From contig CBDDCA010000004.1 of assembly GCA_965226055.1 (NCBI GenBank), positions 128,001 through 192,000 on the forward strand: 64,000 bases of DNA, in the 5' to 3' direction. The position numbers were made by a program, and so were the translations under genes. Below, one piece after another: positions 55,709 through 63,932 of the stretch (the stretch's first letter is position 1; each line of letters opens with the position of its first letter). A model generated the notes under the pieces. The model ran no database searches. It was given only the letters and a program-made list of their open reading frames with translations, and was not told the DNA's origin. Source of the stretch: Spirochaetia bacterium. Lineage in GTDB: Bacteria > Spirochaetota > Spirochaetia > WTKD01 > G963693115.

Positions 55709-56797
55709 ATGAGTGAAATTAAAACACAAATTATTAGAGTAAATAGTAAAAAATTATCTTTGGATGCAAAAAATCCACGTTTCCCTATTTCTTTTGAAAA
55801 TAAATCTCAAGATGAGATATGGGAATGTATGAGTAGAGCTTTTAGGCTTGAAGAATTAGCTCTTTCAATGGTTGAGAATGGATATTTTGAAATTGAGCCT
55901 ATGGCAGTCATTCCAAAAAAAGCAATTTCCAATCAGAAAGAATATGATACATATAAAGTATCTGATAATGAGTTTATTGTTGTTGATGGTAATAGAAGAT
56001 TATCTGCTATAAGAGGGCTTATTAATAATAAATTTCCTGATATAAAGATAACAAAGGATTTACAAAAACAATTTGAAGATGGTATTCCTGTACTATTTTA
56101 TGTTAAGAGAGATGATATTTTGTCATTCTTAGGAGTGCATCATCTTGCTGGAGTAAGAAGTTGGGATATATATGATCGTGCAAGGTATATAGTGCATTTA
56201 AAAAGAGAAAAAGGTAGATCGTTGTCACAAATTCAAGATATGATAGGAAATGATATGAATTTACCAACAAAATTGTATGTATCTTATCGACTGATTGAAA
56301 TATTGAAAGAACATGATGATAATTTTGATGATAAGAGTGCCAAAGACAATTTCTCTTTTTTGACATTAGCACTAAGTAAGCCAGAAATAAGAGCATATAT
56401 CGGTTTACAAGCATGGCAAAAATTATCTGATAGTGAAGTCGAAAATCCCATTGCCTCTGAAAATCGAGAAAGATTAAGTAATGTATTCAGATGCATATTT
56501 GACTATAATAGCGATACAAAACGTATAATAAGGGAATCTCGTGATATTGATACATTATCTATAATTTTTTCTTCTGAGGAAGGGATAAATCATCTACTAA
56601 CTCATAAAGATATTGATGAGGCATATGAAATAAGTATAGATGAAACTCCACCTCATGTATTGATTAATAAATATTGGCTAGGAAAGGAAGCTACAGATAA
56701 TGTTTCATCCATAAAAATGATGGATTTTCTTATTTATAAAATATGTTCTGGATTAGAGGCAAGGCAGGGTGAGCAATACAGAGAAAACTATATGTAA
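55709..56797 (+). CDS. ParB/Sulfiredoxin N-terminal domain protein
   Basis: LSLDAKNPRF, LALSMVENGY..EP, VVDGNRRLSA, H..G...W; GGAGG RBS. Confidence 0.82.
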   Translation: MSEIKTQIIRVNSKKLSLDAKNPRFPISFENKSQDEIWECMSRAFRLEELALSMVENGYFEIEPMAVIPKKAISNQKEYDTYKVSDNEFIVVDGNRRLSAIRGLINNKFPDIKITKDLQKQFEDGIPVLFYVKRDDILSFLGVHHLAGVRSWDIYDRARYIVHLKREKGRSLSQIQDMIGNDMNLPTKLYVSYRLIEILKEHDDNFDDKSAKDNFSFLTLALSKPEIRAYIGLQAWQKLSDSEVENPIASENRERLSNVFRCIFDYNSDTKRIIRESRDIDTLSIIFSSEEGINHLLTHKDIDEAYEISIDETPPHVLINKYWLGKEATDNVSSIKMMDFLIYKICSGLEARQGEQYRENYM

Positions 56798-56800
56798 TGG

Positions 56801-57688
56801 ATGAACATGAAAAACAATGCAAAAGCAAAACTGAAAGAGAAAGAACAATATGCAAAAGCAAAACTAGAAAAAGAATTATTACAGAAAAAGAGAATATCTA
56901 AGGAAGATATAAAGGAAGATATAGTAGCTCTTTTGGGAGAAGAAGATGATAGTATTGATAGTAAGGCTGATGATAAGATTAATAAATATAAGAAATTATT
57001 TGATATTTACGGAGAAACTGTTTTTACATGGGATGATGAAGCAAAGGTTATATCTCTCCATAAAGATTTTAAAGCAATAGAAGAATATCTATATTGCTTA
57101 GCATGTCATTTATTAACAGAAAAAGAGAAGTCAACTATAAAGGATAAATTCTGTTTCGAAAAAATTGTTGGAGAGGCATTAAAAGTATTATTCGGAAAAG
57201 ATTCGCATTATGAGATTACTGACGCTCATTATAGAAACTTAATTAAAAATACTGATTCTGATAATAAAAACTTAATTAAAGATATAGCAGAAAAAATGAA
57301 TGAAGAATTTGTACAAAAAATCGAAACAGGAAAAGATGCTGCTTGTGATATTGTATTTTGGAAGTGTATTGAAAAATCTTTAGGGAGTAATATAGTAGTA
57401 TTGGCTCAATGTAAGACAGGAAATAATTGGAAAGACGGTAAAAGTGTATATGTTGATTTTTGGAGAACTTTGATAATTTTTTCTATACCTCCAATAAAAG
57501 CATTTGCTATTACTGATTTAGTAGTAGATAGAAAAGATATAAGAAGATGTACAAAACAAAGAGGTTTATTTTTAGATAGGGCAAGTATTATAAAGATTCT
57601 CTCAAATCAGGATAATGAGGGATTACAGAAGATTCGGGCAGATATATCTCAATTAGAGTTGGGACAAAGATTGGAAGAAGAAATGTAA
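56801..57688 (+). CDS. Putative restriction-endonuclease-fold (PD-(D/E)xK) protein
   Basis: FEKIV, KDAACDIV, LAQCKTG..WK motifs; GLFLDR tail. Confidence 0.7.
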   Translation: MNMKNNAKAKLKEKEQYAKAKLEKELLQKKRISKEDIKEDIVALLGEEDDSIDSKADDKINKYKKLFDIYGETVFTWDDEAKVISLHKDFKAIEEYLYCLACHLLTEKEKSTIKDKFCFEKIVGEALKVLFGKDSHYEITDAHYRNLIKNTDSDNKNLIKDIAEKMNEEFVQKIETGKDAACDIVFWKCIEKSLGSNIVVLAQCKTGNNWKDGKSVYVDFWRTLIIFSIPPIKAFAITDLVVDRKDIRRCTKQRGLFLDRASIIKILSNQDNEGLQKIRADISQLELGQRLEEEM

Positions 57689-57989: not shown

Positions 57990-58679
57990 CTAGAGAATTT
58001 CTAATTTAGTATGTTCGTCCTCTTTTCTATCTGATAGGGGGTCAAAGTCGCTTGAAAAATCAATTTCATCAATGTTTATATCATTATCATTTTGAAACAC
58101 ATTATCGTCATCATGGAAAGAATCGCCAATATCTAAGGAGGTATCGCCCATAGATGAATGAAGTGAATCATTCATAGTATCATCTGATACGAAAATTGTG
58201 TCACCTTCATCGTGTGATGAGCCTGAAGAAATAGCACTGTTTGTAGAAGTATCTATACCCGTATTGCTACGAGATGTTGGCACTGTGTTATCGGTAGAGG
58301 CATGACTTTCTTTCGCTTTTGCACTGGAGCTACTGTTGCTGTTGTCTATGGTAGCAGAGGGTTGTGTTTGTGTGCTTGAAAAATCTACACCATTTTGAAG
58401 CTCTTCGATAGTTTCAAAATTGCTTATGGCATTTACAACACTTTTTTCGAGATTAGATTGCTCTTTTTGGGCAGAATCTACCAGCTTTTCCAATTCCAAT
58501 ACACGTTCTTCGTATTCGTCAAGTTGCCCTTGAATCGTTTCTTCATACTCTTGAAACTTTTTCTGCATTTGTTCTTTCTCTAAGGATATTTGTGTTATTC
58601 TTTGTTTTAGTTGTTGAATAAGATCAATAGCAGCTTCCACTTTTGTTTCTAGCTTAAAGATAATTTGCTTAGGACTCAT
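57990..58679 (-). CDS. ZapB-like coiled-coil protein with acidic disordered tail
   Basis: KLETKVEAAIDLIQQLK start, heptads, position between rplT and zapA. Confidence 0.65.
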   Translation of the reverse strand: MSPKQIIFKLETKVEAAIDLIQQLKQRITQISLEKEQMQKKFQEYEETIQGQLDEYEERVLELEKLVDSAQKEQSNLEKSVVNAISNFETIEELQNGVDFSSTQTQPSATIDNSNSSSSAKAKESHASTDNTVPTSRSNTGIDTSTNSAISSGSSHDEGDTIFVSDDTMNDSLHSSMGDTSLDIGDSFHDDDNVFQNDNDINIDEIDFSSDFDPLSDRKEDEHTKLEIL

Positions 58680-59364: not shown

Positions 59365-59467
59365 CTGTAGAATACAGATTTTTGTATTATTGTTACATTG
59401 TAAAGAAATTTAGTATATCTATAGTGGATGTGATACAATAGTAGTAGTATAAATAGGAGGAAAACAT

Positions 59468-61558
59468 ATGGCAGAAAGTAAAAGTATAGGACAATTACAA
59501 AAAGACGCGGAGCAATTTTTTAAGGATAAAAAATATTATAAATGTATAGAGGTTTGTACAGAGATTATTAGTAGGGATGATGCAACAGAAACAGATAAAG
59601 CAAGTGCGTATTATAACAGCGGAAAAGCGAAAGCTAAACAAGGAAAGATGGATGAAGCGATAGCTGATTACGATAAAGCGATAGAGCTAGATCCAAAAGA
59701 TGCATCAGTATACTACAACAGAGGAGTCGCGAATAGTAAACAAGGAAAGTATGAAGAAGCGATAGCTGATTACGATAAAGCGATAGAGCTAGATCCAAAA
59801 GATGCATCAGTATACTACAACAGAGGATATGCAAAAGATGAATTAAAAAAGTATGAAGAAGTGATAGCTGATTACGATAAAGCGATAGAGCTAGATCCAA
59901 ACAAAGTAGAAGCATACATCAACAGAGGAAATACGAACTATCGACAAGGAAAGTATGAAGAAGCGATAGCTGATTACGATAAAGCGATAGAGCTAGATCC
60001 AAAAGATGCATCAGTATACTACAACAGAGGATATGCAAAAGATGAATTAAAAAAGTATGAAGAAGCGATAGCTGATTACGATAAAGCGATAGAGCTAGAT
60101 CCAAACAAAGTAGAAGCATACATCAACAGAGGAAATACGAACTATCGACAAGGAAAGTATGAAGAAGCGATAGCTGATTACGATAAAGCGATAGAGCTAG
60201 ATCCAAACAAAGTAGAAGCATACTACAACAGAGGAGTCGCGAATAGTGAACAAGGAAAGTATGATGAGGCGATAAAAGGTTACGATAAAGCGATAGAGCT
60301 AGATCCAAACAAAGTAGAAGCATACTTCTACAGAGGAATTACGAAAGCTAAACAAGAAAAATATGAAGAAGCATTAGCCGATTATGATAAAGCGATAGAG
60401 CTAAATCCTCAAGATCCAAAAGCATATTATTACAAAGGTTTATTATTATTAATTCATAAAAAATACGATTCATCAAAAATATTAGAAGGTATTTATTGTT
60501 TGAATATTGCTTTACAAAATGGTATATCTGGTATAGATATGAATGATATTGCAGATAGTGATAGTAATGATAATAAAAACAATATTTTGTCTGTATTTAA
60601 AAATGTATTGGAAATATTGGATAAATTAAAAGTAACAAAAAATGATAAAAATTATAAAGAGTATCTTTCACATACTACTCGTTTATCTGTATTAAAACAA
60701 CTTTTGCCTATACCGTCACCATCCTCCCAAAGTGAAAAAGCATCTTCCAAAAATATAGTGTCAGCATTTCGATTGTACCATATTGTATATTCAAATGATC
60801 CGACAGAAGGAGATATTCTCTTTAAGACATTAGGTATTGAAGATGAAAAAGAATCACTCCCTTATGTAATGATAGCGAGCTTTTCTAGTGGGGATTCCTC
60901 AGAAAAATTAGATGTTTTGCCTCTATGGAGTACATATGGAGATAATACAAAGGGTGTATCTCTATTATTTAAGACAGAAGGTATAGCTTCTGATGAAAGA
61001 AAACATATTGGTGTTTCTGGAGTAAAGAAGGTATTGGAAAAAGATATAAACATAACAAAAGATACGGATGATAGTTCTTATTTAAAGCCAATACTCTATA
61101 GAGTTTATTATACTGATATAAGTAAAAATGAAGATGGAGTGACTAAAAATAATGAAGAAGAAATAGCTATTTATCTCAAAAATATAAAAGATAGTCTTAA
61201 AGAGATAAAACCAAAAGAGAAAAATGAGCAACAAGAAGAAATATACAAAAAAATCTTAGAATTGTTATTTGGATTGAGGTATCTTATTAAGGATAAAAGC
61301 TATGAATATGAAAATGAATATCGCTTAGTATGTTTTCCTCCATTTGATAGTATACAATATGACGAAAAAGATACTGAAAACGATGCAATAAACCGTATGT
61401 ATGTAGAAGAGGATATTATAACAAAATTAGATAGCTTAATAGTAGGAGCTAAAGTTCCTCCTGCCAAAGTGCTTGAAATAAAATATTTGCTAAAAAAGTG
61501 TGATAAGACTAAAAATAGAGAAATTAAAGTAATACCAAGCAGTATTCCCTACCGCTAA
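59468..61558 (+). CDS. TPR-array protein with C-terminal DUF2971-like domain
   Basis: 8 near-identical TPRs; SNDPTEG, ASFS, LPLWSTYG...GVSL, KDKSYEYENEYR motifs; GGAGG RBS. Confidence 0.85.
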   Translation: MAESKSIGQLQKDAEQFFKDKKYYKCIEVCTEIISRDDATETDKASAYYNSGKAKAKQGKMDEAIADYDKAIELDPKDASVYYNRGVANSKQGKYEEAIADYDKAIELDPKDASVYYNRGYAKDELKKYEEVIADYDKAIELDPNKVEAYINRGNTNYRQGKYEEAIADYDKAIELDPKDASVYYNRGYAKDELKKYEEAIADYDKAIELDPNKVEAYINRGNTNYRQGKYEEAIADYDKAIELDPNKVEAYYNRGVANSEQGKYDEAIKGYDKAIELDPNKVEAYFYRGITKAKQEKYEEALADYDKAIELNPQDPKAYYYKGLLLLIHKKYDSSKILEGIYCLNIALQNGISGIDMNDIADSDSNDNKNNILSVFKNVLEILDKLKVTKNDKNYKEYLSHTTRLSVLKQLLPIPSPSSQSEKASSKNIVSAFRLYHIVYSNDPTEGDILFKTLGIEDEKESLPYVMIASFSSGDSSEKLDVLPLWSTYGDNTKGVSLLFKTEGIASDERKHIGVSGVKKVLEKDINITKDTDDSSYLKPILYRVYYTDISKNEDGVTKNNEEEIAIYLKNIKDSLKEIKPKEKNEQQEEIYKKILELLFGLRYLIKDKSYEYENEYRLVCFPPFDSIQYDEKDTENDAINRMYVEEDIITKLDSLIVGAKVPPAKVLEIKYLLKKCDKTKNREIKVIPSSIPYR
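59600..60415 (+). repeat. In-frame tandem array of eight 102-bp TPR units
   Basis: Near-invariant core gcgatagctgattacgataaagcgatagagctagatccaaa every 102 bp. Confidence 0.95.
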
Positions 61559-61653: not shown

Positions 61654-62208
61654 TCAGTGGCAAATAAATCTAAGTAATGCTGAAAAGAGAGAAAGATTAT
61701 TATAATAACACCTACAAATATTAGGAAAAAATAGAATAGAAAGAAATAATAGAATAGAAAGAAATAAAAGTACAGAAAAGAAAGATATAAAAACATAAGT
61801 AGTAGCATATTCTCTCTTTTTTACTATATGGTATTCTTCAGGAAGTCGTTTTCTTTCTATATCTTCTTCTGTAAAGCATTCAAAAGGGAAATATTTTTCT
61901 ATCCTTTTGATAACTTTGTATTTTGCTTTATTTAAATGTTTGTATGAGTATACATTACAAAGCCATATTATAGAAAAGCATAATCCAAGAATACTCATAA
62001 CAAAAATAAATACAGTAGTAAATGGAAGTTCTAATTTATCCTGTGTAGCAAGAATAGCAACAATCCCTCCAATAGAAGTAAGTATAAGAGAGCAAATAGA
62101 AAAATAAAAGTTATTACTTCGCAGTCTTCTATCGCTAGTATCTTCTGCTGTTTTTAAGTATATTTTGTATATTTCCAGTAAACGATCTTTACTTTTATAA
62201 TCACCCAT
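61654..62208 (-). CDS. RipA/SLATT-like small membrane protein
   Basis: LLEIYKIY...SDRR...NNFY, two TM, W...SYK.LN.AKYKVI..IE..FP...F..E pattern, third hydrophobic segment. Confidence 0.7.
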   Translation of the reverse strand: MGDYKSKDRLLEIYKIYLKTAEDTSDRRLRSNNFYFSICSLILTSIGGIVAILATQDKLELPFTTVFIFVMSILGLCFSIIWLCNVYSYKHLNKAKYKVIKRIEKYFPFECFTEEDIERKRLPEEYHIVKKREYATTYVFISFFSVLLFLSILLFLSILFFPNICRCYYNNLSLFSALLRFICH

Positions 62209-62321: not shown

Positions 62322-63932
62322 ATGATTATTCGCGGTATAGAATCTATTGGTGAGCAGGAAGGCACGCCGTCAGCACATGAGCAACATAGTCGAGAAGTAA
62401 ATACAAGCCATACTCATGGAGCTTTTTCAGGAAACATGCCTGAAAGAGAAAATGGTGTCTCAGGCACATCGCAAGGAGCAACTGCTCCTGCTAATACCAT
62501 TGTAAATAATAGCACTATTGATACCTCTGTGTCAAACTCCGAGTTATTTTATAAGAAACGCGTTATTGGTGGAATAGAGAGTGCATTTAGTCCCACAAAG
62601 ATAGCCGTTATTGGTGTTGGTGGAGGCGGAGTAAATGCAGTAAGCAGTATGGTAGACTTAGAATTAGATGGCATAGACCTGTGGGCTGCAAATACCGATG
62701 CTCAAACCTTAAGCGACTGTCCCGTGAGTAATGTCATATTGCTTGGTTCTAAATCCTGTAATGGTCTCGGAGTAGGAGGAGATCCACAACGGGGAGCCGA
62801 AGCTGTGTATGAAATGCAAGAGGATATTGGTGGTGTACTAAAAAACTATGACATGATATTTCTTGCCACAGGCTTAGGAGGAGGAACAGGCTCTGGAGCT
62901 ATTCCTGTACTTGCAAAAATAGCACGGGATAGTGGCGTACTTGTTGTCTCTATTGTTACTATGCCATTTCTCTACGAAGGACAGAAAAGACAAAGCAATG
63001 CCGAAAACAGCTTAGAAGAACTAGAAGAATTTACAGACGCGCTGATAATAGTGCCTAATAACAGCCTTATCACTACCAGTGCTTCTCGTTCTGATGTGTT
63101 TGTGGAAGATAGCTTTCATACTGCCAATAAGATTTTGTCAGATACCGTTAGCTCCATTACTAATATTCTCACTACAAGAGGACGTGTCAATATTGATTTT
63201 GCAGATATTAAAAGCTGTATTCAAAATTCTGGTCTTATTTCGGTTGGCATTGGAGAATCGAATATTGAAGAAAGTCATGGAGGCAATGCTCACAGAGCCA
63301 CTGAAATAGCCCTTACAAATAAATTGCTTTCCGAAGAGAACGCACAGGTACTTTCGTATGCAGACAATATTATTGTAAATGTTGTGCTAGGAAAGAGCTG
63401 TCCTATGCATGATTATGCCGCTATTACAGATATGATTATTTCACGTACCTCTGTTAAGCCAAGCAATATAAAAACAGGACATCGTTTTGAATCCACATGG
63501 GATCATAAAGTGCAAGTTACCATCATTGCAGCATCCAGCTTAAAAAGTCATGGAAAAAAAATAGTCAATCCCAACAGAAGCATGAGCAGTGCAAGGAGCA
63601 TGCCCGTACATGATACAGGCAGGCATGCTACTGTCAATCACGTGCCTACCTCTGTAGCTCCAGCACATGATACCGTGTACTCACACGCGTACACTGAAGA
63701 ACAAGCAGCACATAACAATAGTCCTCCATATCCCTACGATAGAGAAAAAAGAGACATCAGTTTACAAGGCATGTACGAAACCTCTGACTCGGATCAAAAA
63801 TATATAGACAGCGATGTATTTCGCTCGTTGATAAATCAGCCCATAAGAGATGTCAATGAAATTTTACAGGAAGAACTTGACACGATGAAAAAAACAACAC
63901 CAGTGCAACAGTATTCTGATATCATTCCATAA
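62322..63932 (+). CDS. ftsZ: FtsZ-family tubulin-like GTPase with long N- and C-terminal extensions
   Basis: IGVGGGGVNAV, NTDAQ, GLGVGGDP, GLGGGTGSG, PFLYEG, NIDFAD. Confidence 0.9.
   Translation: MIIRGIESIGEQEGTPSAHEQHSREVNTSHTHGAFSGNMPERENGVSGTSQGATAPANTIVNNSTIDTSVSNSELFYKKRVIGGIESAFSPTKIAVIGVGGGGVNAVSSMVDLELDGIDLWAANTDAQTLSDCPVSNVILLGSKSCNGLGVGGDPQRGAEAVYEMQEDIGGVLKNYDMIFLATGLGGGTGSGAIPVLAKIARDSGVLVVSIVTMPFLYEGQKRQSNAENSLEELEEFTDALIIVPNNSLITTSASRSDVFVEDSFHTANKILSDTVSSITNILTTRGRVNIDFADIKSCIQNSGLISVGIGESNIEESHGGNAHRATEIALTNKLLSEENAQVLSYADNIIVNVVLGKSCPMHDYAAITDMIISRTSVKPSNIKTGHRFESTWDHKVQVTIIAASSLKSHGKKIVNPNRSMSSARSMPVHDTGRHATVNHVPTSVAPAHDTVYSHAYTEEQAAHNNSPPYPYDREKRDISLQGMYETSDSDQKYIDSDVFRSLINQPIRDVNEILQEELDTMKKTTPVQQYSDIIP

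Follow-up and report, generated by a model that had tools for sequence, protein, structure and literature searches.

A Mosaic Tetratricopeptide Repeat Array Joined to an ADP-Ribosyltransferase-Like DUF2971 Domain in an Uncultured Spirochaete: a Candidate Sensor-Effector

RESULTS

The gene and its predicted product

We analyzed a 64,000-nucleotide (nt) stretch of DNA (the window) from contig 4 of a six-contig, 2.25-Mb assembly (G000) of an uncultured member of the Spirochaetia. Near its end lies a gene for a 696-amino-acid protein in which an array of tetratricopeptide repeats (TPRs) precedes a DUF2971 domain (Table 1). A sequence-only reading had taken this gene for a shuffled TPR array fused to an ADP-ribosyltransferase (ART)-like domain and proposed that it encodes a recombination-diversified immune sensor. 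The immediate neighbors of this gene, which stands alone, are rpmI and a convergent gene for an 8xMP membrane protein. A promoter-like site at 59398-59425 is weak, with a match of 9/12, which is the level found in shuffled sequences.

The product is predicted to be soluble and cytoplasmic, because no signal peptide, lipobox, or membrane segment was found in its 696 residues (Kyte-Doolittle 19-residue maximum of 1.1, with −0.1 at the N terminus). A Pfam scan matched TPR_1 in eight stretches (E = 2.4e-92). In a full-length AlphaFold model (predicted local distance difference test [pLDDT] of 86.2, predicted template modeling score [pTM] of 0.81), the solenoid consists of 20 helices forming 10 hairpins, namely, an N-terminal cap, eight units, and a degenerate ninth, with pLDDT values of 95 to 99. 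Past the solenoid, the model has a helical linker and then an alpha/beta domain with two disordered loops. The pTM of this model is a hint that the TPR part and the ART-like domain have a defined arrangement. Linker columns I51, F55, I61, L62, L65, K66, and V67 (numbering of alignment A1) are conserved, and relatives that have no array retain the ninth hairpin and linker. The G+C content of the linker and ART-like part is 27.9%, compared with a window mean of 34.2%.

Table 1. Positions in the window of the TPR-DUF2971 gene, its parts, and two neighboring features
Feature	Position	Strand	Remarks
Whole gene	59468..61558	+	Open reading frame (ORF), 696 amino acids plus stop
Shine-Dalgarno sequence AGGAGG	59455..59460	+	7 nt ahead of the ATG; strong; read from the sequence
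N-terminal capping hairpin, residues 1-42	59468..59593	+	Helices 7-19 and 23-35 (full-length model)
Eight 102-bp TPR units, residues 43-314	59594..60409	+	Homogenized helix-B halves; mosaic helix-A block alleles
Units 3-4, copy one of the 204-bp duplicated block	59798..60001	+	203/204 nt identical to 60002-60205
Units 5-6, copy two of the 204-bp duplicated block	60002..60205	+	203/204 nt identical to 59798-60001
Degenerate ninth TPR-like hairpin and conserved helical linker, residues 315-395	60410..60652	+	Helices 317-329, 335-350, and 368-387
DUF2971/ART-like domain, residues 396-696	60653..61555	+	Pfam; large helical inserts, two disordered loops
H402 (YLSHTT), candidate motif I	60671..60673	+	End of first strand; invariant in 10/10 close relatives; at least 90% of 35 aligned relatives
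Y441-x-N443-D444-P445-x-E447-G448, candidate motif II region	60788..60811	+	After second strand; N443, D444, P445, E447, and G448 in 35/35
S471-F472-S473	60878..60886	+	Third strand; S471 in at least 90% of 35
E615-N-E617 (ExE), then Y-R; candidate catalytic motif III	61310..61318	+	E615, E617, and R619 in 35/35
Inner stretch hyperdivergent from sister genome	59600..61300	+	36-80% nt identity per 100 nt; flanks 92-100%
Low-G+C gene pair (29.8% and 28.3%)	55709-57688	+	Upstream, past ribosomal and zap genes
8xMP membrane protein (PF24838, E = 6.4e-26)	61654-62208	-	26.5% G+C; weak PADLOC match, SLATT of DRT systems

The array is a mosaic of block alleles with an apparent recent duplication

Cut at 59594 + 102n, the array falls into eight units of 34 amino acids. 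Tandem Repeats Finder reported it with a period of 102 (7.8 copies, 82% matches, score of 959) and with a period of 204 (3.7 copies, 88% matches, score of 1114). From unit 1 to unit 8, the helix-A blocks read KAKAKQG, VANSKQG, YAKDELK, NTNYRQG, YAKDELK, NTNYRQG, VANSEQG, and ITKAKQE. The linker allele KDASVY is found in units 2, 3, and 5, and NKVEAY is found in units 4, 6, 7, and 8. The units, blocks, and linkers were as the sequence-only reading had listed them, save that unit 1 carries a unique linker, DKASAY. The same reading had noticed that units 3 and 4 recur as units 5 and 6, and in the assembly they do: units 3 and 5 agree at 101 of 102 nt, the single difference being GTG versus GCG, and units 4 and 6 agree at all 102. 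The longest exact repeat in the array is 141 nt (59863 = 60067).

Differences among the units are concentrated in one half. Each unit's first 51 nt code for the loop and helix A; helix B and the closing loop are encoded by its last 51. Among units 2 to 7, the mean number of nt differences is 13.7 in the first half and 2.3 in the second, and synonymous divergence is about four times higher in the first (0.19 versus 0.05). The VANS block is found with KDASVY as well as with NKVEAY, and each of these linkers is also found with other blocks. These alleles differ at many bases, and because they are present in all four combinations, at least one exchange between units must have occurred. The array thus bears the marks of interunit exchange and of a recent two-unit duplication.

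When the variable residues were mapped to the TPR groove, the columns with at least three residues among the units were canonical TPR positions 33, 5, 9, 12, 13, and 15. As the sequence-only reading had anticipated, all of these but 15, hence five of the six, fall in the set 2, 5, 9, 12, 13, 33, and 34 (hypergeometric P = 4e-4), which Magliery and Regan describe as the most variable TPR positions, exposed on the concave ligand-binding face (PMC1261162).

The array in public sequencing runs

Three runs (X1 to X3), from three samples of one study, contain about 90% of the region's sequence words. Their contigs match the unit-specific blocks and junctions at 100%, including the unit-specific parts of units 5 and 6. 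The public contigs are short and end inside the array, and none spans it. The depth of the duplicated blocks in contigs was 1.3 to 2.4 times that of the flank, contig depth being no copy number: in X1, the blocks stood at 9.08 and 10 and the flank at 6.96; in X2, they stood at 6.72 and 8 against 3.4; and in X3, the block stood at 11.4 against 7.7. The unit-2 block had a depth of 6 in X1 and 4 in X2. The raised depth fits two copies of the block and does not prove them; the duplication is plausible and unproven. A fourth run (X5), with a different organism label and from a different study, contains a 90 to 95% identical relative with replaced stretches. No RNA run was listed among those containing the region.

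The C-terminal domain is a DUF2971 domain with an ART-like predicted fold

Pfam DUF2971 (PF11185) matches residues 486 to 620 with an E value of 1.5e-5 and 26.7 bits, above the family cut-off of 22, and the domain alone scores 28.5 bits. The nearest Atlas clusters are all DUF2971 (score of 0.89), which is a lead only. An AlphaFold model of residues 323 to 696, built with 80 sequences, was confident (pLDDT of 85.8, pTM of 0.88). We compared it, independently of Foldseek, with 48,161 representative PDB chains. All five chains with a Z score of at least 5 were Tpt1 or DarT: yeast Tpt1 (7yw4; Z of 6.8, root mean square deviation of 2.9, 118 residues aligned) and the DarT chains 7yk3 (6.4), 7omv (6.2), 7omu (5.8), and 8baq (5.7). 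SopF, scabin, CteC, and pierisin were among the lower-ranked matches. The sequence-only reading had suggested a Foldseek comparison with ARTs; the top five Foldseek matches were indeed all DarT, with E values of 0.17 to 0.8, and there was no match at an E value of ≤0.001. When Foldseek's 149 best chains were realigned, the top 12 all belonged to the ART superfamily, after which Z dropped to 3.8, and the DarT chains were covered nearly end to end. The model therefore points to an ART core fold, with a resemblance to Tpt1 and DarT of moderate strength (Z of 5.7 to 6.8), and supports the view that this is a DUF2971 domain with an ART-like fold, as had been proposed from the sequence.

We rejected membership in the DarT family itself. 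Pfam DarT (PF14487) gave no match even at E values of up to 10, only DUF2971 being found, and hhalign of alignment A2 with six spirochaete DarT sequences returned a probability of 0.07. Elsewhere in this genome, on contig C6, there is a partial match to the DarT family (G000:C6:119568-119888, L029), which covers positions 1 to 124 of the 201-position model (E = 1.6e-11) in a 170-amino-acid open frame.

The motifs characteristic of DUF2971, a conserved Tyr region and ExE, are both present, and W487 and Y490 join the invariant motif residues of Table 1 in all 35 aligned relatives. In the model, the conserved candidate residues are found on strands or next to them: H402 at strand 1, Y441/S471 at strands 2/3, and E615/E617 at strand 5. 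The sequence-only reading had pointed to H402-T-T, S471-F-S, and E615-N-E in the order of ART catalytic motifs, and they occur in that order. H402 and E-N-E very likely correspond to motifs I and III. The choice of S-F-S as the middle motif was probably off, although S471 is conserved. Published work describes the family as an ART of modified H-Y-E type in which a Tyr and an ExE motif are conserved (PMC12522546), and the Tyr region is the likelier candidate for the middle motif.

Hyperdivergence and mosaicism within the gene between close relatives

The close family is small: 6 proteins were found in a search of 5.8 billion proteins, and 10 were found at an E value of ≤1e-30 among 1.84 billion representatives. 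A sister genome (G004) retains the order of the neighborhood, with a ParB-like gene, its partner, zapA, a zapB-like gene, rplT, the DUF2971 gene, and ftsZ. Between the two genomes, RplT is 100% identical and ZapA and FtsZ are each 98.9% identical, while the TPR-DUF2971 protein is only 53.8% identical. The boundaries are sharp. DNA identity is 95 to 100% up to about 59600, 36 to 80% from there to about 61300, 92 to 93% over the last 250 nt of the gene, and 91 to 100% again from 62100. By segment, the protein is 93% identical to the sister allele in the cap (41/44, residues 1 to 44), 59% in the array, 43% in the linker, 67%, 58%, and 51% in successive parts of the ART-like domain, and 89% at the C-terminal end, so that the ART-like domain is itself hyperdivergent and not the array alone.

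The closest relative changes along the protein. Identity to a metagenomic protein (P0002) is 55% in the cap, 67% in the linker, and 79% in the first ART part, and segment by segment, the window protein is nearest alternately to P0003 and P0002. In the domain tree, it pairs with P0002 (support of 94/94) and not with the allele of the sister genome. Divergence this large between genomes that are otherwise about 97 to 100% identical here cannot have arisen in place. Sequence comparison thus indicates that the inner part of the gene was exchanged between old alleles, with the conserved ends as the likely anchors.

The gene has also multiplied. There are four paralogues in a genome of another genus (G003), one of them directly upstream of ftsZ, and three in a genome of another family (G214), each with its own distinct array of 70 to 87% internal DNA identity. 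The sequence-only reading had called for a comparison of repeat number and order. The arrays differ at every one of the nine close-family loci and the alleles are mosaic between near-identical genomes, in support of a recombination-diversified array; among the three sequenced samples, no shuffling was visible. Among the matches listed from 301 genomes of the class, those reaching the ART-like domain came only from G000, G004, G003, and G214. A tally of 93 of the 301 genomes was set aside as noise from ordinary TPR proteins, alignment A1 having carried TPR columns.

Relatives of 362 to 385 amino acids have no array. In G214, there is a natural split form (L060:1593-4291), in which a 514-amino-acid TPR-array ORF and a 385-amino-acid DUF2971 ORF overlap by 4 nt. 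The latter is identical to P0005, and the break lies where fused relatives continue in frame. Array and enzyme can therefore, to judge from these ORFs, be separate proteins.

Defense genes and type III Mod genes are frequent neighbors

Restriction-modification or other defense genes adjoin three of the six loci of G000, G004, and G003 (the window, L008, and L011). In the window and L008, the defense neighbor is a PD-Lambda-5_A-like pair. The first gene of this pair encodes a 362-amino-acid ParB/GmrSD_N-like protein (PADLOC PDC-M38A, 2.4e-19; PD-Lambda-5_A, 2.9e-12). The second encodes a 295-amino-acid protein with no family match, for which the nearest Atlas clusters are unnamed (0.97) and give weak restriction-endonuclease leads. 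The sister genome retains both genes (92.7% and 83.3% identity), their DNA divergence being patchy; the two probably form a separate two-gene defense system. In G003, the neighbors at L011 are an HsdS gene, an ImmA-like peptidase gene, and a gene for a GmrSD-like HNH protein; at L010, there is a NERD nuclease gene; and at L009, two type III Mod genes follow the gene. A macrodomain or NADAR antitoxin gene was not found adjacent to the window gene, so the locus does not have the DarTG arrangement.

In G214, each of the three copies comes after a type III Mod gene, and in L060 and L065, stop and start codons overlap. In L060, the Mod gene, the TPR ORF, and the DUF2971 ORF are joined by ATGA overlaps and are followed by a ThsB-TIR-like gene, an 8xMP gene, and a GmrSD gene. 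In total, Mod lies directly beside TPR/DUF2971 genes at four loci (L060, L061/L063, and L065 in G214 and L009 in G003). It is absent beside the window gene; the sole Mod gene of G000 is on contig C6 and has no TPR or DUF2971 neighbor. We also noted that another Mod-then-TPR pair starts at L064:3064-5600 and that upstream in the G214 island there are ResIII, HicB-like, and ParA-like genes.

Arrays precede the same domain in distant phyla

The best 150 representatives in a wider search are mostly 450 to 1000 amino acids long with a C-terminal DUF2971-type domain. Counting the window protein, at least 34 of 152 proteins had units that a narrow TPR-unit profile detected; this profile undercounts, since among 25 long proteins that it missed, Pfam found Sel1 in two and TPR in two. 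Other relatives carry Sel1 repeats. TPR-like arrays precede the domain in Clostridium, Chitinophagaceae, Haemophilus parainfluenzae, Neisseriaceae, Fibrimonadaceae, and another spirochaete. DNA identity between units is 90% over 813 nt in H. parainfluenzae and 84% and 89.5% in two metagenome-assembled genomes (MAGs) of Neisseriaceae, and the units are less alike in the arrays of Clostridium, Chitinophagaceae, and a Fibrimonadaceae MAG. In these distant arrays, most differences again fall in the first helix. One metagenomic protein of 1160 amino acids (P0125) combines TIR, NB-ARC, and TPR, and its last 120 or so residues match the ART-like domain (E = 1.8e-8); Pfam made no DUF2971 call in it. 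By its domain order, P0125 may be a relative of the TPR-ART architecture of the NOD-like receptor (NLR) type.

DISCUSSION

A sensor-effector reading of the gene

Our favored reading, which we hold to be somewhat probable, is that the protein is a single-chain cytoplasmic sensor-effector of a conflict system, most likely an anti-phage one acting by abortive infection. We favor it because the DUF2971 family has one validated anti-phage member, because the ART-like fold is nearest to DNA- and RNA-directed enzymes and has its conserved motifs intact, and because the residues that vary in the array are those of the groove. It is also favored because the divergence is extreme, sharply bounded, and mosaic between near-identical genomes, with the paralogues expanded, because restriction-modification neighbors are frequent, and because homogenized arrays recur independently before the same domain. 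The evidence is circumstantial but consistent.

On this reading, the 10-hairpin TPR solenoid, of which eight hairpins would be recently homogenized units, would form a concave binding groove, and the C-terminal module of 370 amino acids would be a DarT/Tpt1-like, nucleic-acid-directed ART with the motifs H, Y-x-NDP-x-EG, and ExE. No antitoxin gene is adjacent, and control would therefore have to be internal: we infer that the array would restrain the enzyme until it bound a foreign protein or peptide. Once released, the enzyme would use NAD+ to ADP-ribosylate DNA, RNA, or a core protein, and replication or transcription would stop. New binding surfaces might arise by two routes. In one, unequal crossing-over and gene conversion would act on the 102-bp units; in the other, alleles would trade inner gene segments, anchored by their conserved 5′ and 3′ ends.

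A broader version would make TPR-array-DUF2971 proteins pattern-recognition receptors without an NTPase, a class widespread in bacteria. In this version, a solenoid under concerted evolution would be fused to a DarT-like ART, or encoded by an overlapping upstream ORF, and unit shuffling and cassette exchange would make the new surfaces; in some Spirochaetia, the receptor would be wired to a type III Mod gene in a restriction-like arrangement in which the "cut" is DNA ADP-ribosylation. We regard this version as doubtful.

Several results weigh against the sensor-effector reading. Structural Z scores below 8 and Foldseek E values of 0.17 or more can reflect a common arrangement only. The hhalign comparison with DarT found nothing, and a PDB sequence-profile search with the protein gave designed TPR proteins only. 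The catalytic residues were assigned by conservation and strand order. Neither an antitoxin gene nor one for an ADP-ribose hydrolase lies next to the gene, which leaves autoinhibition as an assumption. The ratio of nonsynonymous to synonymous differences (pN/pS) in the helix-A half, 1.2 to 1.5, is only suggestive, coming as it does from nonindependent pairs of very short sequences, and recombination inflates tests of this kind. The mean amino acid identity between units is 69% (73% for units 2 to 7), below the 85% of the fungal comparison made further on. No alternative junctions were reported in X1 to X3, where every array contig was at least 99% identical to the window, so no ongoing shuffling is visible among three samples of one study. 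A tblastn search gave no phage record and only three plasmid records, from Streptococcus megaplasmids. The seven distant loci that we examined are mostly single genes amid housekeeping genes, without other defense genes. One of the seven is a locus in the Fibrimonadaceae MAG (L021:2614-8778), where the DUF2971 homologue has a 581-amino-acid TIR-domain protein and its 263-amino-acid unknown partner on one side and a TPR protein and a patatin-like phospholipase on the other.

Weighing the alternatives

The main alternative keeps the domain as a genuine ART-like toxin or enzyme and takes the array for a generic scaffold or oligomerization part, with a block pattern that neutral concerted evolution would produce and a divergence due to one old allele replacement. 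The most divergent units are those at the array ends, 1 and 8, as expected of any array evolving by unequal crossing-over, in which the inner units become homogenized and those at the ends escape. The lack of variation among the three samples and the modest identity between units fit this view too, as does the existence of array-less relatives, and concave positions vary most in TPRs generally, so that such variation is expected of any functional TPR. What neutral homogenization does not readily explain is that it halts at the helix-A half in successive units (13.7 versus 2.3 nt), that all nine of the close-family loci have different arrays with the same pattern in distant phyla, and that the ART-like domain is hyperdivergent as well. 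We therefore consider a mere scaffold unlikely. The type III Mod genes suggest another possibility, in which the protein would serve as the effector of a restriction-like system tied to methylation; the array would bind a partner such as Mod, the DarT-like domain would ADP-ribosylate unmodified DNA, and the window copy would be an orphan. Mod genes adjoin four of the nine close-family loci, the order Mod, TPR, DUF2971 occurs three times in G214, and the fold is nearest to DNA- and RNA-directed ARTs. This proposal is nevertheless quite unlikely. Neither the window gene nor L008 has a Mod neighbor, none of the seven distant loci has one, and the three G214 loci look like mutual duplicates and so are not independent; with a ResIII gene in the same island, Mod may belong there to an ordinary restriction-modification system.

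Two further readings find little support. An effector or toxin exported against an animal host or rival bacteria, with the TPRs as a eukaryote-like interaction domain, would suit the hypervariability, which is also a property of host-interaction genes, and about 18% of DUF2971 proteins are predicted effectors, in a family found in 5981 species (PMC12522546). Relatives occur in runs of several organism labels, the small shares found in runs X6 and X7 being no evidence. Yet the protein has no export signal or membrane segment, no secretion, Rhs, contact-dependent inhibition, or immunity gene is adjacent, and the neighbors are ribosomal, cell division, and restriction-like genes, all of which makes export very unlikely. 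Slightly less probable again is a fast-evolving cellular regulator, for example, of division or translation. Such a role could explain the seat of the gene between rpmI-rplT and ftsZ in two genera, where it directly precedes ftsZ with the same orientation (in the window, L008, and L012, the last from another genus). The query found no copy in three of the six family genomes (85 to 93% complete), however, and only 4 of the 301 class genomes gave, among the matches listed, ones that reach the ART-like domain. Three of the four copies in G003 lie elsewhere in the genome, the protein is 54% identical between genomes in which FtsZ is 98.9% identical, and an insertion sequence (IS) element and the membrane protein gene intervene before ftsZ.

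Relation to known systems

Part of the sensor-effector reading is already in print. DUF2971 was placed in 2025 near DarT, AbiGi, and Tox-ART-HYD1, with large helical inserts (PMC12522546), so that the ART idea for the family is not new, nor is its role in defense. Aristaios, described in 2024, is a lone 316-amino-acid DUF2971 protein of the Lactococcus plasmid pUCCL641 with an ART-like model; it was shown experimentally to cause abortive infection and interferes with phage transcription (PMC11381338, PMC13064643). The window protein resembles it in Pfam family, in being encoded by a single gene, and in predicted fold. Aristaios, as described, has no repeats, whereas the window protein adds an array and linker of about 395 amino acids in front.

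DarT is the anti-phage DNA ADP-ribosyltransferase of DarTG toxin-antitoxin systems. In the realignment, 134 to 151 residues aligned over nearly the whole DarT chain (7omv, 7yk3, and 8baq; Z of 5.7 to 6.5), and both domains have a His ending the first strand and a Glu ahead of the fifth core strand. Unlike DarT, the window domain has large helical inserts and ExE in place of a single Glu, no detectable profile similarity to DarT, and no DarG-like macrodomain antitoxin adjacent. It thus resembles the DarT fold and is not of the DarT family.

The sequence-only reading had appealed to fungal NLRs, and the precedent stands as it was given: near-identical TPR, ANK, or WD repeats that are shuffled and change in number, with variation on the concave face and a death or effector domain joined to them (PMC4986451). 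There, repeats count as highly conserved internally when they are at least 85% identical over 100 amino acids or more (PMC4986451); in the window protein, only the helix-B halves and the duplicated pair reach this level. The window protein shares with fungal NLRs the near-identical DNA repeats, the shuffling, the concave-face variation, and the attached effector domain. It differs in being bacterial, in its unit identity of 69 to 73%, in having its array at the N terminus and its effector at the C terminus, and in lacking a NACHT or NB-ARC NTPase; 25 of its 31 Pfam hits, all of TPR type or DUF2971, included no NTPase family. It is therefore at most a protein that works like an NLR and not a member of the NLR or STAND class. 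With bacterial STAND, Avs, and NLR-like proteins, it has the logic of a TPR sensor and an effector in common, but it lacks their ATPase switch, and its activation would have to proceed without nucleotide-driven oligomerization.

Two models of the PADLOC candidate PDC-S31, a single-gene candidate defense family, match parts of the C-terminal domain weakly and partially (4.1e-5 and 1.6e-4); the literature that we searched does not mention PDC-S31. A Legionella survey contains no mention of TPR, Sel1, or tetratricopeptide. Our search, which covered main texts, turned up no account of the TPR-array fusion or of its concerted evolution, its cassette-like hypervariability, or the Mod-coupled and split forms. 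What is new here is the sharply bounded mosaic hypervariability, the arrays before the same domain across phyla, and the type III Mod-adjacent and split forms.

DUF2971 is a large family with one tested anti-phage member. If the sensor-effector reading is correct, the window gene joins such an enzyme to a readable, fast-evolving TPR sensor, which would give a handle on the trigger through array swaps and binder pull-downs, and the split, array-less, and methyltransferase-linked versions in close relatives would widen that handle. It would also be a bacterial case, without an ATPase switch, of the repeat-shuffling route to immune specificities that is known mainly from fungal NLRs. If it is wrong, the locus still stands out as a gene whose hypervariability has sharp limits in symbiont genomes that are otherwise nearly identical.

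Neighboring genes and minor features

The convergent 8xMP gene may be a recurring neighbor, having been found twice beside the family. A 42% identical homologue in G214 lies after the ThsB-TIR-like gene that directly follows the DUF2971 ORF. A literature search on 8xMP gave nothing relevant. In the sister genome, an IS element splits the gene, leaving the parts for residues 1 to 50 and 63 to 167 at a distance of 1.3 kb. In the window, the 3′ end of the 8xMP ORF contains an 18-bp tandem repeat of about 3.2 copies (61725-61792), which encodes a Leu/Phe/Ser-rich tail that is absent from the 156-amino-acid G214 homologue.

FtsZ (62322-63932, plus strand) has 536 amino acids, with about 90 residues preceding the tubulin domain (Pfam from residue 93) and a long tail following it, and FtsZ of G003 has only 443. 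The ZapB-like coiled-coil protein (57990-58679, minus strand) carries a long tail rich in Ser, Asp, and Asn. With 88.6% identity to the sister copy, and with insertions and deletions, it is less conserved than the products of the neighboring zapA and rplT genes.

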